Positions 17,449 to 23,312 of a stretch of 24,000 nt of DNA are shown piece after piece (within the stretch, counting starts at the first letter, position 1; each line of letters starts with the position of its first letter). The position numbers and the translations under genes were made by a program. Source of the stretch: Priestia megaterium (lineage in GTDB: Bacteria; Bacillota; Bacilli; Bacillales; Bacillaceae_H); NCBI RefSeq assembly GCF_015582655.1, contig NZ_CP058255.1; one strand, given 5' to 3'. The notes under the pieces are model-generated. The model worked only from the letters and a program-made list of their open reading frames with translations. It was not told the origin of the DNA and did no database searches.

Positions 17449-17494
17449 TTGACGTATTTGACACCTCACACTACAATTAGTAGTGTGAGGTGTC
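17449..17494 (+). promoter_or_regulatory. SigA-type promoter overlapped by a 15-bp perfect inverted repeat (candidate BlaI-family operator)
   Basis: TTGACG (17449-17454), 17 nt, TACAAT (17472-17477). The arms are GACACCTCACACTAC (17460-17474) and GTAGTGTGAGGTGTC (17480-17494), separated by AATTA. The dyad covers the -10 and the SD GAGGTG. Confidence 0.6.
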
Positions 17495-17498
17495 GAAT

Positions 17499-17912
17499 AT
17501 GAAAATTGAAAAATTCAAATTTAACGAAACCGGCCTTAATCGCTTTTTTGGCCCGCTTGAAGCAAAAATTATGACGGCTTTATGGAACGGAAGTGAAATG
17601 TCTATTAAAGACGTGCAGCACGTGCTTGAGAAAGAAAAAGCAGTGAACTTCAACACCGTTATGACCGTTATGAATCGATTGGTGGAAAAAGGCGTGTTGC
17701 AAAAGCGTTTAAAAGGACGTACGTCGATGTATCAGCCGATTCTTTCTAAAGAGGAATTTATCGACGCTCAGTCGAAAGAGTTAACGCACGAATTGATCGA
17801 CGAATTTGGCTCGCTTGCTGTTACTCATATGCTTGATGCGTTAGAAGAAGTCGATGATTCACTGTTAAGCATGCTCGAATCAAAAGTCAAACAGTTAAAA
17901 AAGGATGAATAA
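17499..17912 (+). CDS. BlaI/MecI/CopY-family transcriptional repressor
   Basis: The winged-helix N-terminus LGPLEAKIMTALW..MSIKDVQHVL......NTVMTVMNRLVEKGVLQK..GRTSMYQP fits the family. The ATG lies 6 nt after GAGGTG. There is no C-terminal CxC metal motif. Confidence 0.85.
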   Translation: MKIEKFKFNETGLNRFFGPLEAKIMTALWNGSEMSIKDVQHVLEKEKAVNFNTVMTVMNRLVEKGVLQKRLKGRTSMYQPILSKEEFIDAQSKELTHELIDEFGSLAVTHMLDALEEVDDSLLSMLESKVKQLKKDE

Positions 17913-17915
17913 TCA

Positions 17916-18767
17916 ATGAATCAAGGAATACTAAAGCGTTCTAAGCTTATTTTTAACCTGTGCTTTTTTATTGCCGTGACGTTGCTTATGCAAATGGGCA
18001 TGTATGTGCTGCATTTGCTGTTTGGATGGAATTTATCGTTTAACTTAATTTTACTTTGTAACAAAGTAGCCCACTTTTTCGGCTTGTTTTTTATTGAATA
18101 CATGCTGAATGCGGTTATTTTTCATACGATGTTCGTACTGTTCATTAAAGCTGTAAAGCAAGTGATTCAAATTCGGAAAGTCCGTAAAATGATTACGAAG
18201 CTGCGACATGAAACAGCAACGGCTCACCTGCAAAAAGCGTACGGAAAGAATTTAACAGTTTTAACAACAGATCAGCCTATTGCATTAACAATGGGGCTGT
18301 TTACACCGCACATCGTTCTGTCTACAGGGTTGCTCTCAGTGCTTGATGAAAATGAACTAGAAGCTGTTATTTACCACGAGCAGTCACACGTTGCAAACAA
18401 AGATCCGCTCAAAACATTTTTACTAAGCACGCTTGCTTCTGCATTATGGTATATTCCGTTTATTAAATGGAGCCATAAACGTTTCAAAGTCATGCGTGAA
18501 GTGCTGGCTGATCAAGATGCCATTGTGAAAAATGGCACGTCTGCTCACATCGGCAGCGCCCTTTTAAAAATGGTTAAAACGGGACAGACAAGTCTTTCGT
18601 GTGCGCACGTATCATTTGCTGATACGTCGGTTAATTATCGCATTCAATATATTTTAAATCCGGAAACGAAAATGCCGATGCAGCCTCCTGTTGTTTTAAC
18701 GCTGACGTCGCTATACGTGTTTTTTATTTTGTGTGCGCTAATTTTTACAGCTCTAACAGCTTTGTAA
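17916..18767 (+). CDS. M56-family (BlaR1/MecR1-like) membrane metalloprotease lacking the C-terminal sensor domain
   Basis: The gene starts 3 nt after the repressor stop. The product has TM helices and the zinc motif YHEQSHV (HExxH). At 283 aa it is about half the length of BlaR1. Confidence 0.8.
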   Translation: MNQGILKRSKLIFNLCFFIAVTLLMQMGMYVLHLLFGWNLSFNLILLCNKVAHFFGLFFIEYMLNAVIFHTMFVLFIKAVKQVIQIRKVRKMITKLRHETATAHLQKAYGKNLTVLTTDQPIALTMGLFTPHIVLSTGLLSVLDENELEAVIYHEQSHVANKDPLKTFLLSTLASALWYIPFIKWSHKRFKVMREVLADQDAIVKNGTSAHIGSALLKMVKTGQTSLSCAHVSFADTSVNYRIQYILNPETKMPMQPPVVLTLTSLYVFFILCALIFTALTAL

Positions 18768-18773
18768 GTTTGT

Positions 18774-18810
18774 AAGAGAGAGAGAAAGAAAAGAAAAGAA
18801 AAGAAGGAGA
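18774..18810 (+). repeat. 37-nt uninterrupted polypurine tract, (GA)n then (GAAAA)3, ending in the bdbD SD
   Basis: AAGAGAGAGAGAAAGAAAAGAAAAGAAAAGAAGGAGA. It is preceded by the direct duplication TTTGTAAG-TTTGTAAG, which spans the M56 stop codon. Confidence 0.8.
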
Positions 18811-18817
18811 TGAGATT

Positions 18818-19525
18818 GTGTCAAAAGCAAAGAAAAAGAAAAAAGTAACGCCCAATCAGCAAACGTCCTCGAGCAAGTGGATTTTTTGGGTGATTGGAAT
18901 TATTGCGGTCTGTATTTTAGGGTTAATCGTCCTTTCTAATATGTCAAAGGGCGGAGAAGATGAAAAGGCCGCTCTTACATATGATAATCAGCCGTATCTT
19001 GGAAAAGAGTCAGCTCCGGTAGAAGTAGTAGAGTTTGGAGATTACAAATGCCCGGCTTGTAAAAACTTCACGGAATCCTTTTTCCCGCTGATTCAAAAAG
19101 ATTATGTAGATACAGGGAAAGTCAAATTCTACTTTATGAACTATGCGTTTATCAACAATGACTCCTCTCGTGCAGCAGAGTTTGCTGAAACAGTATACAA
19201 AGAGCTTGGAAACGATACATTTTGGAAATTCCATGAACTTCTTTATAAAAAGCAAAACGCAGCGGACGAAAAGAAAGATGTCTTAACGGAATCTTACTTA
19301 GAAGATACGCTGAAAGAAGTATCTAGCGATGCCGATGCGAAAAAAGTAGCGAGTGCATTTAAAGACGGAAAAGGAAAAGATGGGTTTGATCAAGATATGA
19401 AGACAGCCACTGATTTAGGCATCACAGGTACACCCACCATTTATGTAGGCGGCAAAAAATTCGAAGGAAAAACAATCGATGACTTTGATCAAATGGTCAA
19501 AGATGCGGCTAAGGAGAACAAATAA
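18818..19525 (+). CDS. bdbD: Thiol-disulfide oxidoreductase, DsbA family (BdbD-like), membrane-anchored
   Basis: The product has an N-terminal TM anchor and the active site CPACKNF in a thioredoxin fold (VEFGDYKCPAC). GTG lies 6 nt after GAAGGAGAT. Confidence 0.85.
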   Translation: MSKAKKKKKVTPNQQTSSSKWIFWVIGIIAVCILGLIVLSNMSKGGEDEKAALTYDNQPYLGKESAPVEVVEFGDYKCPACKNFTESFFPLIQKDYVDTGKVKFYFMNYAFINNDSSRAAEFAETVYKELGNDTFWKFHELLYKKQNAADEKKDVLTESYLEDTLKEVSSDADAKKVASAFKDGKGKDGFDQDMKTATDLGITGTPTIYVGGKKFEGKTIDDFDQMVKDAAKENK

Positions 19526-19935
19526 TGAACAAGTCTTTGGTTTTCGGGTGGATTACAGCGCTTATCGCGATGCTTGGAAGCTTGACGTTTAGTGAAGTTC
19601 TTCACTTTATCCCGTGTGAACTTTGCTGGTATCAGCGAATTTTAATGTATCCGCTCGCGATTGTGCTAGGTGTAGCCGTGTACCGGAATGATATGGTCAT
19701 CTACAAATACGTCCTGCCGTTTTCTGTGATTGGTATGGCGCTTTCAGGCTATCATTATTGCTTGCAGAAGATACCGGCTCTTAAAGCATTTGAAACGTGT
19801 ACAAGCGGTGTTCCTTGCTCAGGTCAATATATTAACTGGCTTGGGTTTATCACCATTCCTTTTTTAGCGTTTATCGCGTTTACTATCATTACAATTACGA
19901 TGCTTGTTCTTCGCAAGCAGACGAAAAAAGCTTAA
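19525..19935 (+). CDS. bdbC: Disulfide bond formation protein B (BdbC-like)
   Basis: The product has four TM helices, CELCWYQR (CxxC) and a second Cys pair, CTSGVPC. The start overlaps the bdbD stop (TAATG). Confidence 0.88.
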   Translation: MNKSLVFGWITALIAMLGSLTFSEVLHFIPCELCWYQRILMYPLAIVLGVAVYRNDMVIYKYVLPFSVIGMALSGYHYCLQKIPALKAFETCTSGVPCSGQYINWLGFITIPFLAFIAFTIITITMLVLRKQTKKA

Positions 19936-19956
19936 CCTCCGGGTTAAGCTTTTTTG
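19924..19956. terminator. Bidirectional intrinsic terminator after bdbC
   Basis: AAAAAGCTTAACC-TCCG-GGTTAAGCTTTTT. The bdbC stop lies in the left arm. Confidence 0.85.
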
Positions 19957-19965
19957 TATGAAAAC

Positions 19966-20037
19966 AAAAAAAGGCCCGCTTCCAAGAAGCGGGTGCAAAT
20001 AGGGTACATCTATGAAAAATGATGAAATTGTTTTGAC
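19966..20037 (-). ncRNA. Candidate small RNA, unit A1 (about 72 nt, ends approximate)
   Basis: On the minus strand: TTTTCAC-N4-TTTTCAC (20060-20077), 10 nt, TATACT (20044-20049). The terminator is GCCCGCTTC/GAAGCGGGT plus U7. There is no experimental or homology support. Confidence 0.3.
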
Positions 20038-20123
20038 AAGAACAGTATATAAAAGAAAAGTGAAAAAACGGTGAAAAGAGAAAAGCTTTTTTAAAAAATA
20101 AGGTGAAAATATGCTTTTCTTAC

Positions 20124-20196
20124 AAAAAAAGCCCCGCTCACAAAAAGCGGGGAATAAATAGGGGTCATTTATGAAAAATGATGAAATTGCTTTGAC
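20124..20196 (-). ncRNA. Candidate small RNA, unit A2 (about 73 nt, ends approximate)
   Basis: On the minus strand: direct repeat 20219-20236, 10 nt, TATACT (20203-20208). The terminator is CCCCGCT/AGCGGGG plus U7. Confidence 0.3.
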
Positions 20197-20258
20197 AAAC
20201 TTAGTATACAAAAGAAAAGTGAAAAAACGGTGAAAAGATGGAAGCTTTTAGAAAAAAT

Positions 20259-20336
20259 AAAAAAAGACCTGTTTTTGGGAAACAGATCACTAGAAAGGGA
20301 GTAAAACTATGAAAAAATATGCTAATTGGCTTCGCA
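20259..20336 (-). ncRNA. Candidate small RNA, unit B1 (about 78 nt, ends approximate)
   Basis: On the minus strand: direct repeat 20359-20376, 10 nt, TAGGAT (20343-20348). The terminator is GACCTGTTT/AAACAGATC (one mismatch) plus U7. Confidence 0.3.
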
Positions 20337-20390
20337 AGTACTATCCTATACCTTTATGGTGAAAAAACGGTGAAAAGAAAAGCGGGATAT

Positions 20391-20445
20391 AAAAAAGACC
20401 TGCTTTGGGGAAACAGGTCTTTAGAATATGCTAATTGGCTTCGCA
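20391..20445 (-). ncRNA. Candidate small RNA, unit B2 (about 55 nt; carries a 22-nt internal deletion)
   Basis: On the minus strand: direct repeat 20468-20485, 10 nt, TAGAAT (20452-20457). The terminator is AGACCTG/CAGGTCT plus U6. Confidence 0.25.
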
Positions 20446-20499
20446 AATACGATTCTATACCTTTATGGTGAAAAAACGGTGAAAAGAAAAGCGGGATAT

Positions 20500-20576
20500 A
20501 AAAAAGACCTGCTTTGGGGAAACAGGTCTTTAGAAAGGGAGTAAAACTATGAAAAAATATGCTAATTGGCTTCGCA
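20500..20576 (-). ncRNA. Candidate small RNA, unit B3 (about 77 nt, ends approximate)
   Basis: On the minus strand: direct repeat 20599-20616, 10 nt, TAGGAT (20583-20588). The terminator is AGACCTG/CAGGTCT plus U6. Confidence 0.3.
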
Positions 20577-20729
20577 AATACAATCCTATACCTTTATGGT
20601 GAAAAGATAGTGAAAACGATATTAGGATATAGCTCCTATTTTTCCATATTATAGATTCATTTCTCTTTAATAGGGTATACGTTCATTAGAATCGATATAA
20701 ACTTAAAGAGCTGCCAGGGAGGTATATAT

Positions 20730-21212
20730 ATGGAAAAGAAACACGAAGCAACTACAAATCATCGCGTCGTTCATCGCGCTCGAAATAGCTGGTCAGGCTT
20801 TTTGTTTGGCGTAGGGTTAGTTGCTTTTATTGATGAAGCAGTGTTTCATCAGCTGCTTCATTGGCATCATTTTTATGATAAGTCCACAACGGCCGCTGGT
20901 TTAGTGTCGGACGGTTTGTTTCATGCATTCAGCTGGTTCGCTACAATTGCATCACTTTTTATGGTGGCAGATCTCAGGCGCCGAGGCGGCTGGTGGGTGA
21001 AAAGGTGGATAGGAGGAGTATTGCTTGGAGCCGGGGCGTTTCAGCTTTATGACGGGACCGTGCAGCATAAGCTTATGGGACTTCATCAAATCCGGTACGG
21101 AGTGAAGATTGCACCTTACGATATTACGTGGAATGTACTTGCATGTTTGATGCTGCTTATTGGCATCATGTTAACATGGTTTACACGTAAACAAGGTGCA
21201 CATCATGATTAA
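20730..21212 (+). CDS. DUF2243 domain-containing membrane protein
   Basis: The His-rich TM motif FIDEAVFHQLLHWHHFYD and a four-TM layout of about 160 aa fit DUF2243 as I recall it. AGGGAGG RBS is present. The gene is coupled to the downstream CtaG-like gene. Confidence 0.6.
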   Translation: MEKKHEATTNHRVVHRARNSWSGFLFGVGLVAFIDEAVFHQLLHWHHFYDKSTTAAGLVSDGLFHAFSWFATIASLFMVADLRRRGGWWVKRWIGGVLLGAGAFQLYDGTVQHKLMGLHQIRYGVKIAPYDITWNVLACLMLLIGIMLTWFTRKQGAHHD

Positions 21213-21963: not shown

Positions 21964-22003
21964 AAAACGCGCAGAAAGCATGGTGCTTTCTGCGCGTTTT
22001 TTT
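21962..22003. terminator. Bidirectional intrinsic terminator
   Basis: AAAAAACGCGCAGAAAGCA-TGGT-GCTTTCTGCGCGTTTTTTT lies between two convergent genes. Confidence 0.9.
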
Positions 22004-22886
22004 AGTGAATGTTTCGTTTTTTAAAGCGTCCGCCGCGGACTTCGGTAATATCTGCAACAGCTAAAAAGGCAGTAGGGTCAAAATCTTCAACAATGGTTTT
22101 TAGCTTTGATTCTTCAAGGCGCGTAATGATGCAGAAAATCACTTTTTTATCATCGCCCGTATAAGCACCTTCACCGTGCAAATAGGTAACGCCTCGACCT
22201 AGACGCGCATTAATCGCATCGCCGATGTCATCAGAATGATCACTAATAATCCAAGCTGATTTTGATTCTTCTAATCCTTCTACAACTGTATCAATGGCTT
22301 TGGCCGCAATGATGTACGCAAGGATGGAATACATGGCGCGGTCCCACGTGAACACAAATCCCGCTGCTCCTAAAATGAAGAAGTTGAAAAACATCACAAT
22401 TTCTCCTACAGAAAACGGAATTTTTTTGCTGATTAAAATGGCAAGTATCTCCGTACCGTCAAGCGCTCCGCCGTAGCGAATTACGAGTCCAATTCCAATT
22501 CCGAGAATAATCCCTCCAAAAACGGTAGCAAGAAGAACGTCTGCGGTAAACGCGGGGACATGGTGAAACCTAGAAGTTAAGATGGATAAAACCAGTATGC
22601 CAAAAATAGTGGAAAGGGCAAATGTTTTCCCCATTTGCTTGTACCCGATAAATACAAACGGAAGATTTAGTACAAAAAGAAAGATTCCTAGATTTACGCC
22701 AGTAATATGCGAAAGCATGATGGAAATACCGGTAATTCCTCCGTCGACAACGTGGTTTGGAACGAGAAAAATCTCAAGTCCTGTGGCCATGAGCAGGGCA
22801 CCGATCGCAATAGCGATGGCCCTACCAAATACCTGTCCCTTGGACAGCTTTCGGTGCTGAATTTTCGCTTTTTCGAGTTCTGTCAT
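22002..22886 (-). CDS. YitT-family membrane protein (with DUF2179 C-terminal domain)
   Basis: GLEIFLVPNHVVDGGITGISIML plus a soluble C-terminal domain are typical of YitT. The ATG at 22886 lies 8 nt after AAAGGAG; the ATG at 22892 is too close to the SD. Confidence 0.85.
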   Translation of the reverse strand: MTELEKAKIQHRKLSKGQVFGRAIAIAIGALLMATGLEIFLVPNHVVDGGITGISIMLSHITGVNLGIFLFVLNLPFVFIGYKQMGKTFALSTIFGILVLSILTSRFHHVPAFTADVLLATVFGGIILGIGIGLVIRYGGALDGTEILAILISKKIPFSVGEIVMFFNFFILGAAGFVFTWDRAMYSILAYIIAAKAIDTVVEGLEESKSAWIISDHSDDIGDAINARLGRGVTYLHGEGAYTGDDKKVIFCIITRLEESKLKTIVEDFDPTAFLAVADITEVRGGRFKKRNIH

Positions 22887-23019
22887 TTGCATGTCTCCTT
22901 TGATGTCTCCTATGTATTTCCCACTTTAGAAAAGTGAAACTATCTTTAATTATACCTTACTATGCACAATTAGTGGGGATAGACGGCTTAATTACTTGTT
23001 TCATCCTATAAAAAAAGCC

Positions 23020-23133
23020 TGCTTTAGAGTCATAAGCAGGCTTTTTAAGGAGTAAAACGATGAAAAAAGATATTGGCTTCACGGCTTTAACTATATAGAA
23101 AATTGATGAAAAAACAGTGAAAATGCCGGCATG
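23020..23133 (-). repeat. Sixth, diverged and solitary copy of the array module (candidate RNA about 23020-23093)
   Basis: On the minus strand: TTTTCAC-N4-TTTTCAT (23116-23133), 10 nt, TATAGT (23100-23105). The terminator is AGCCTGCTT/AAGCAGGCT plus U7. It shares the core GGAGTAAAAC-N-ATGAAAAAA and the ATTGGCTTC block with B units. Confidence 0.7.
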
Positions 23134-23186: not shown

Positions 23187-23312
23187 ATGAGCGTGTGGAT
23201 GATCTATAATCACTTGATGCATTCGCAAATCTTTTTAAGCAGCGTATTAATTAGCGGTATTCTTCTTGTTAGCGGAGGATTTGTGTACGGCAGAATAATG
23301 AGCAAAAAGTGA
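23187..23312 (+). CDS. Small hydrophobic peptide (41 aa, one TM helix, C-terminal KK)
   Basis: This ORF is below the ORF-track cutoff. AAAGGAGAT lies 6 nt upstream of the ATG. Product is MSVWMIYNHLMHSQIFLSSVLISGILLVSGGFVYGRIMSKK. Confidence 0.4.
   Translation: MSVWMIYNHLMHSQIFLSSVLISGILLVSGGFVYGRIMSKK

Follow-up and report, generated by a model that had tools for sequence, protein, structure and literature searches.

A tandem array of putative regulator-dependent small RNA genes in Priestia megaterium

The stretch of Priestia megaterium DNA analyzed here (24,000 nucleotides [nt] of contig NZ_CP058255.1; hereafter, the window) contains a 795-bp gap between bdbC (19525-19935, plus strand) and a DUF2243 gene (20730-21212, plus strand) that is occupied by five head-to-tail units. 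Our comparative analysis suggests, with a probability of about three in four, that these units are small RNA (sRNA) genes, each transcribed from a regulator-dependent promoter. Read on the minus strand, every unit presents the same layout: a TTTTCAC-N4-TTTTCAC direct repeat (hereafter, the box), exactly 10 nt, a TAnnnT hexamer, a body of 55-78 nt, a GC-rich hairpin and a T-run. As judged from these sequence features and their conservation, the units apparently constitute a real, previously undescribed sRNA family of the functional kind represented by the csRNAs of streptococci and the LhrC RNAs of Listeria.

Unit anatomy and conservation across Priestia

Five exact copies of the box lie within 19966-20616, all of them on the minus strand, against an expectation of 0.05 for the shuffled 24-kb window. 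The hexamers that follow them are, in order, TATACT, TATACT, TAGGAT, TAGAAT and TAGGAT. Within the array, five terminator-like hairpins followed by a T-run were found, all of them on the minus strand, the plus strand having none, and the scanned 1.5 kb contains six such sites in total, compared to 1.3 expected. These hairpins have the attributes of intrinsic terminators: their GC-rich stems are at least 5 bp long, their loops measure 3-8 nt (9 nt in the additional unit C, described below), and a T-run follows on the transcribed strand. The units fall into two subfamilies, A (A1 and A2, 78% identical) and B (B1 to B3, with 91% identity between B1 and B3), and the GC-rich terminator stems of different subfamilies occupy the same position and have complementary arms while being unrelated in sequence.

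A preliminary description of this stretch had proposed five short minus-strand RNAs, independently promoted and terminated and packed 14-46 nt apart. We recovered all five units at the same coordinates, together with the direct repeat, the 10-nt spacing and its hexamers, hairpin arms that differ between subfamilies and stay complementary, and T-tract terminators confined to the minus strand; the measured gaps between units are 46, 22, 14 and 14 nt. The 81-nt duplication noted at the time (20346-20426 and 20455-20535) is exact and does not extend beyond those 81 nt. The count of five is right for the array but overlooked a sixth unit, C (23010-23123, minus strand), which was revealed by a box search allowing one mismatch and which, with its 10-nt spacing and B-like body, represents an unlinked copy located 2.4 kb from the array.

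The DUF2243 protein falls, at 98% identity, within a protein cluster labeled 'MULTISPECIES [Priestia]', which places the window in the Priestia megaterium/aryabhattai group. To establish how the units vary, we compared the window with 16 further Priestia loci obtained through exact-protein look-ups, for a total of 17, and with Priestia-like metagenome contigs obtained through a pattern scan. The array comprises five to eight units in Priestia genomes and as few as three in one metagenome contig that covers the whole gap, a range of variation expected of redundant tandem genes, and unit C is present in every locus or contig that covers its region. In the 51 distinct unit sequences collected, the distance from the box to the -10 hexamer is invariably 10 nt (51/51).

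We then aligned 28 representative units with MAFFT, encompassing Priestia A, B and C units, one unit from Bacillus fengqiuensis (L042) and one metagenomic unit (unit X; L166/L169), in an alignment that leaves the terminators of the different subfamilies out of register. Both TTTTCA cores and positions 1 (T), 2 (A) and 6 (T) of the -10 hexamer are invariant in this set; across the five unit types, the UUUUUCAU element of the body shows almost no variation, and neither does most of the T-run. The spacer is always 10 nt long yet adopts seven unrelated sequences, indicating a promoter in which geometry, rather than spacer sequence, is what counts. The -10 hexamer was found as TATACT, TAGGAT, TAAGAT, TAGAAT, TAGGGT, TATAGT, TAAATT and TACTAT, with variation confined to tolerant positions. 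The B terminator stem is 100% paired in 13 variants, with one pair cycling between UA, UG and CG. Conservation of the promoter columns, the T-run and the stem pairing thus backs the proposal that the units would be independently promoted and terminated as short minus-strand RNAs.

The tandem structure, the copy-number polymorphism and the hairpins could also point to a repeat of the REP/BIME or MITE-like kind, spread by duplication and devoid of regulatory function. We consider this explanation extremely improbable: the conserved columns coincide with promoter and terminator determinants, the units lack terminal inverted repeats and target duplications, and they adhere strictly to one orientation. 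Furthermore, they occupy just two sites in the window, where nhmmer searches with RNA-body profiles yielded no extra or box-less copies; a plasmid search returned no match, and a pattern scan of phage contigs returned 26 single matches, which corresponds to the background level. The many dispersed copies in both orientations and the terminal inverted repeats that characterize the REP/BIME/MITE class are not observed within the 24-kb window, and assignment to that class was rejected.

The promoter box and its putative regulator

The array promoters are composed of two 7-bp direct repeats with an 11-bp period that end 10 nt before the TAnnnT hexamer, without a -35 element. The conserved repeats map to approximately -40 to -23 and hence overlap the -35 region. 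Direct repeats with an 11-bp period, set 10 nt from the -10 hexamer and replacing the -35 element, are the layout of OmpR/PhoB-type activators. A sigma-70 consensus scan of the array did not find a complete -35/-10 promoter, as would be expected for activator-dependent promoters.

To identify genes preceded by the same arrangement, we scanned one genome per species for box-N10-TAnnnT and obtained at least 120 loci. Among the matches listed, 81 had a downstream open reading frame (ORF), which encoded an HtrA homolog in 23 cases (3 in Bacillaceae and 20 in Clostridia; NCBIfam E ~1e-90) and an OmpR-type response regulator in 5, with regulator genes linked to htrA among them. The presence of the box at htrA promoters of both Bacilli and Clostridia indicates that the link between box and htrA spans these two groups. 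In Domibacillus, a response regulator-histidine kinase operon and the adjacent htrA each have a box in front of them, whereas Geobacillus has two boxes back to back, one directed towards the regulator-kinase operon and the other towards a gene pair encoding a PepSY-associated transmembrane-like protein and HtrA. The same box is found before htrA and before the linked regulator-kinase operon in Anoxybacillus as well. Moreover, Bacillaceae htrA promoters and the A units of the array have even the spacer TTTTCTTTT in common.

The association of the box with htrA and with linked regulator-kinase operons implies that it is the operator of an autoregulated two-component system controlling htrA. In Bacillus subtilis, CssRS is an autoregulated two-component system of the OmpR family that activates HtrA-type proteases, and it has been described as governing a small protein-coding regulon (htrA, htrB and cssRS). 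The most probable role of the repeat in the Priestia array is hence that of an operator for a CssRS-type system responding to envelope or secretion stress, and the Priestia units would be members of its regulon by virtue of carrying the box that stands before htrA and the regulator-kinase operon in other Bacillota.

Further box-associated loci were noted in the same scan. The clostridial htrA homologs, which among the matches listed include loci L035, L044, L069, L073, L107, L112, L114, L119, L143, L144 and L148, have a tightly conserved promoter, TTTTCACAnnnTTTTCAC-AAnnnnnTTG-TATTAT. The PepSY-associated transmembrane-like protein (MRKMRNLHLWIGLISS...) is encoded directly behind the box in Geobacillus (L046, 2697-3119, minus strand), where its gene lies upstream of htrA and is divergent from the regulator-kinase operon, and in Anoxybacillus (L117, 4059, plus strand). 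In Neobacillus, Aneurinibacillus and Paenibacillus, box-N10-TAnnnT precedes genes for Gly/His-rich membrane proteins of approximately 130-160 amino acids (aa) that have no NCBIfam match (L097, 6042, plus strand; L099, 3800, minus strand; L141, 2859, plus strand; L139, 6120, minus strand; L047, 5643, minus strand). They may represent another conserved component of the htrA-type regulon.

The RNA body and its possible mode of action

The body of the predicted RNAs contains UUUUUCAU, followed after 6-7 nt by a C-run that reads CUCCC in B and C units and ACCC or CCCC in A units. The combination of UUUUUCAU, about 7 nt and the C-run is the reverse complement of GGGAG-N7-AUG-AAAAA, that is, of a Shine-Dalgarno (SD) sequence at optimal spacing from a start codon followed by lysine codons; we refer to it as the anti-TIR stretch, for its complementarity to a translation initiation region (TIR). 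In the predicted folds, the body is single-stranded between a weak 5' element and the terminator, and the anti-TIR stretch is unpaired in both the minimum free energy and the centroid structures of A1, A2, B1, B3 and C. A second C-run, UUCCCCA, is predicted to be exposed in the terminator loop of the B units. The anti-TIR stretch is missing from B2, which corresponds to a B unit minus 22 nt; the deletion removes UUUUUCAUAGUUUUACUCCCUU and retains the C-rich terminator loop. Of the 17 Priestia loci, this window alone has the deleted form, which is likewise missing from the metagenome contigs compared, and B2 is a strain-specific decayed copy.

Behind the same box, the B. fengqiuensis unit and metagenomic unit X likewise have the UUUUUCAU core and a C-run; unit X carries UUUUUUUCAUACUCUCCCC, with CUCUCCCCUUUUU as CU-rich motif, and a terminator loop reading UUUCCCA. 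This recurrence makes base-pairing to initiation regions the most likely mechanism. We propose that each unit is an sRNA gene equipped with an activator-dependent promoter and an intrinsic terminator of its own, and that under stress the phosphorylated htrA-controlling regulator, of the CssRS type, would fire all copies simultaneously to produce RNAs of 55-78 nt. By pairing with translation initiation regions, these would keep ribosomes from entering their target mRNAs, which would probably encode exported or envelope proteins, so that the load on the envelope would drop while HtrA is induced. Our confidence in this specific translational brake is lower than in the assignment of the units as regulator-dependent sRNA genes.

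The complementarity to an initiation region also means that the plus strand of each unit presents a near-ideal GGAG or GGGAG SD sequence, 7 nt and an ATG, from which ORFs run to a TGA within GGTGAAAA. The products of the array might hence be plus-strand micropeptides (MKKYANWLRKYYPIPLW, 17 aa, in B units; MKNDEIVLTRTVYKRKVKKR, 20 aa, in A units), with the minus-strand features being incidental or corresponding to antisense regulators, as in type I toxin-antitoxin systems. This we judge to be very unlikely, given how the ORFs behave among copies. Of the 35 distinct B variants, 11 have one T more in the U-run, which shifts the frame and leaves the 5-aa peptide MKKIC*, and the substitutions among B units (6 synonymous against 18 non-synonymous, or 25% compared to a chance expectation of 18%) include changes from R to C, S, H or Y as well as premature stops. 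B and C units share the conserved block ATTGGCTTC, but in different reading frames; B2 lacks a start codon; the A peptide shows no relation to the B peptide; and neither has the hydrophobic character of type I toxins. In addition, no plus-strand promoter or terminator was found for the individual units, and the gene tables of the 16 Priestia loci spanning the gap list no gene within it. With neither frame nor amino acid sequence maintained, the plus-strand small ORFs were rejected as genes.

Another explanation holds that the array acts as DNA, either as a decoy or sink for the regulator or as an insulator between bdbDC and DUF2243-ctaG, with any transcripts being by-products without a role in trans. 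It would account for the 12 regulator half-sites within 650 bp, for a copy number that varies freely between strains and for the retention of B2 after the loss of its seed. Conversely, a bank of binding sites would by itself need no conserved body, precisely placed -10 hexamer or terminator, yet conservation in the B units is highest in the RNA body, the UUUUUCAU core hardly varies among five unit types from different organisms, and unit C has the same body despite being solitary. We therefore deem a purely DNA-level role unlikely.

Among known systems, the streptococcal csRNA family is the closest match in design to the regulator-dependent sRNA genes proposed here. The csRNAs are defined by a CiaR box, TTTAAG-N5-TTTAAG, in their promoters, in which direct repeats recur every 11 bp up to 10 bp from the -10 hexamer and no -35 element is present (PMC3091779). 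They are intergenic, measure 51-202 nt with a terminator within 250 nt, number two to six genes per genome, some of them in tandem, and carry anti-SD and anti-AUG (CAU) sequences in an unpaired stretch; CiaR also drives htrA. The Priestia units are likewise intergenic, have a period of 7 + 4 = 11 bp, a distance of 10 nt to the -10 hexamer and a terminator 55-78 nt past the predicted start, and A1, A2, B1, B3 and C, but not B2, have a predicted unpaired stretch of the same anti-SD and CAU type. They differ in their operator (TTTTCAC-N4-TTTTCAC rather than TTTAAG-N5-TTTAAG), in their putative CssR-type regulator in place of CiaR, in the predicted lack of a stable 5' stem-loop, and in forming a larger, strain-variable array (three to eight tandem units plus one).

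The second-closest match is LhrC1-5 of Listeria monocytogenes, a multicopy sRNA of approximately 110 nt with a 5' stem-loop A, of which four of the five genes are in tandem; the Priestia RNAs would be shorter. LhrC is induced by the envelope-stress two-component system LisRK, which also affects htrA. Its redundant CUCCC...UUUU motifs are found both in a stretch that is single-stranded and in the loop of the terminator, and the final duplex covers the target from SD sequence to start codon. Both systems have several near-identical copies, some of them in tandem (five plus one in this window, three to eight plus one across Priestia), and the duplication of the motif has a counterpart in the B units (ACUCCCUUUC and loop UUUCCCCAAA) and in unit X (CUCUCCCCUUUUU and loop UUUCCCA), whereas the A and C units have the single-stranded C-run alone. 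The LisR-responsive element of lhrC5 lies upstream of -53 (-55 to -75), in contrast with the Priestia repeats at about -40 to -23.

A scan of the window against Rfam produced no family reaching its gathering score, and the 35 matches listed for 19850-20750 at E <= 10 include no csRNA or LhrC model. The best match, anti-hemB, scored 35 bits against a gathering score of 49.5 and, like RybB (21.8 bits against 40, mainly over the terminator), was rejected; the matches covered mostly terminator-like hairpins and U-rich stretches. The different operator, the more upstream position of the LhrC element and the lack of a matching Rfam model place the Priestia units outside both the csRNA and the LhrC families. 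The earlier remark that the unit was not recognized as a known sRNA or repeat family is hence in agreement with the Rfam results, but its functional kind is recognizable as csRNA/LhrC-like and its direct repeat as an OmpR/PhoB-type layout that is also found at htrA. In our literature searches, systems of this kind were described for streptococci and Listeria, while no such description was found for the Bacillus family, nor any CssR-dependent sRNA or other RNA arm of the CssRS regulon, nor any account of these RNAs in P. megaterium.

The logic proposed here is also that of Gram-negative envelope-stress sRNAs (MicA, RybB and MicL for sigmaE; CpxQ for Cpx), in which the stress system induces DegP (HtrA)-type factors together with sRNAs that cut envelope-protein synthesis, although no relationship exists in regulator, RNA family or chaperone dependence. 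A tentative generalization, which we regard as doubtful, is that the HtrA-controlling systems of Bacillota (CiaRH, LisRK, the CssRS type of Bacillaceae and a clostridial counterpart) each drive anti-TIR sRNAs from an htrA-type promoter. The Priestia arm would then have expanded to an array that differs in size between strains and reaches eight tandem units, in addition to the one unlinked copy. Its seed (anti-SD, 7 nt, anti-AUG-AAAAAA) would generically recognize the start regions of mRNAs for proteins with signal peptides (MKK...), making the array a dosage-tunable brake on the secretory load.

The yields attainable with Bacillus cell factories are constrained by the CssRS response to secretion stress, and P. 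megaterium is an industrial protein-secretion host. If the proposal is correct, the secretion-stress response of this species has a post-transcriptional arm that could be deleted, tuned or used as a stress reporter, and the pairing of HtrA with sRNAs directed against ribosome-binding sites, as seen in streptococci and Listeria, would also apply to the Bacillaceae and perhaps to Clostridia. The rule of box, spacing and terminator can be used to search any Bacillota genome for such RNAs, and the polymorphism of three to eight copies offers a natural experiment on why multicopy sRNAs persist in bacteria.

Several observations weigh against the assignment as regulator-dependent sRNA genes or against parts of it. 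Covariation within one subfamily is thin: it amounts to the cycling B-stem pair, which is altered on both sides with pairing intact, and a score as high as that observed arose in 28 of 500 shuffles. The -10 hexamer is weak in several units (TAGGAT, TAGGGT). No member of the sequence family was encountered outside Priestia, apart from two loose analogs; among the loci fetched outside Priestia, nhmmer yielded weak matches to L042 and L166/L169, both of which contributed to the combined profile, and to L138. Transcription of the units, the identity of the regulator in Priestia, which is extrapolated from other genera, and the targets were all deduced from sequence and comparison. CssR reportedly binds TTTTCACA repeats at htrA and htrB of B. 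subtilis, and text searches for TTTTCAC with CssR or htrA retrieved primers only. Finally, target prediction by duplex energies against the 22 start regions of the 24-kb window was uninformative and named no target.

Individual units and flanking features

All units are given here on the minus strand, with predicted RNA ends. Unit A1 (19966-20077) has its box at 20060-20077 and its -10 hexamer, TATACT, at 20044-20049; the predicted RNA of 72 nt runs from about 20037 to 19966, with the anti-TIR stretch UUUUUCAUAGAUGUACCC and a terminator stem at 19975-19993 followed by T7 (fold z = -2.9). Unit A2 (20124-20236) has its box at 20219-20236 and TATACT at 20203-20208, and its predicted RNA (about 20196 to 20124, 73 nt; z = -3.1) contains the anti-TIR stretch UUUUUCAUAAAUGACCCC, a UUCCCC running into the terminator and a terminator stem at 20132-20152 followed by T7. 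The 46-nt spacer between A1 and A2 harbors a solitary TTTTCAC half-box (20103-20109, minus strand) that is probably the leftover of a decayed promoter.

In unit B1 (20259-20376), the box at 20359-20376 and TAGGAT at 20343-20348 precede a predicted RNA of 78 nt (about 20336 to 20259) with the anti-TIR stretch UUUUUUCAUAGUUUUACUCCCUUUC and a terminator at 20266-20288 whose loop reads UCCCA. Unit B2 (20391-20485; box at 20468-20485, TAGAAT at 20452-20457) would give the shortest RNA, of 55 nt (about 20445 to 20391), with its terminator at 20394-20422 (z = -4.4). For unit B3 (20500-20616), the box at 20599-20616 reads TTTTCACTATCTTTTCAC and TAGGAT lies at 20583-20588; the predicted RNA spans 77 nt (about 20576 to 20500) and ends in a terminator at 20503-20531 with a CCCCA loop (z = -3.3).

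Unit C has its box at 23106-23123 (TTTTCACTGTTTTTTCAT) and TATAGT at 23090-23095, and its predicted RNA of 74 nt (about 23083 to 23010; z = -4.8) contains the anti-TIR stretch UUUUUUCAUCGUUUUACUCC and a 13-bp terminator followed by T7. A YitT-family gene (22002-22892, minus strand) lies approximately 118 nt downstream in the same orientation, and the intervening segment (22893-23010, minus strand) presents a GTATAAT within about 60 nt past the unit C terminator; read-through from the stress promoter past unit C could extend into the YitT-family gene. Just upstream of the unit C promoter lies a 41-aa hydrophobic ORF (MSVWMIYNHLMHSQIFLSSVLISGILLVSGGFVYGRIMSKK; 23187-23312, plus strand), which is an annotated gene in most of the other Priestia strains examined.

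Two metagenome contigs (L165, 1462, plus strand; L170, 1685, plus strand) contain a box-driven unit with UUUUUCAU and two hairpins, followed by CUUCUCCCCUAUAAUUUUUU, which may represent a further unrelated anti-SD sRNA with the same promoter type. At the bdbC end of the array, a perfect 14-bp palindrome with A6/T6 flanks (19924-19955; AAAAAAGCTTAACC/GGTTAAGCTTTTTT) is likely a two-way terminator that closes bdbC and bounds the array. Genes for a BlaI/MecI-type repressor and a BlaR1-like M56 peptidase lie directly upstream of those for the thiol-disulfide pair bdbD and bdbC (17490-19935, plus strand), and this gene order is kept in all the Priestia loci examined.

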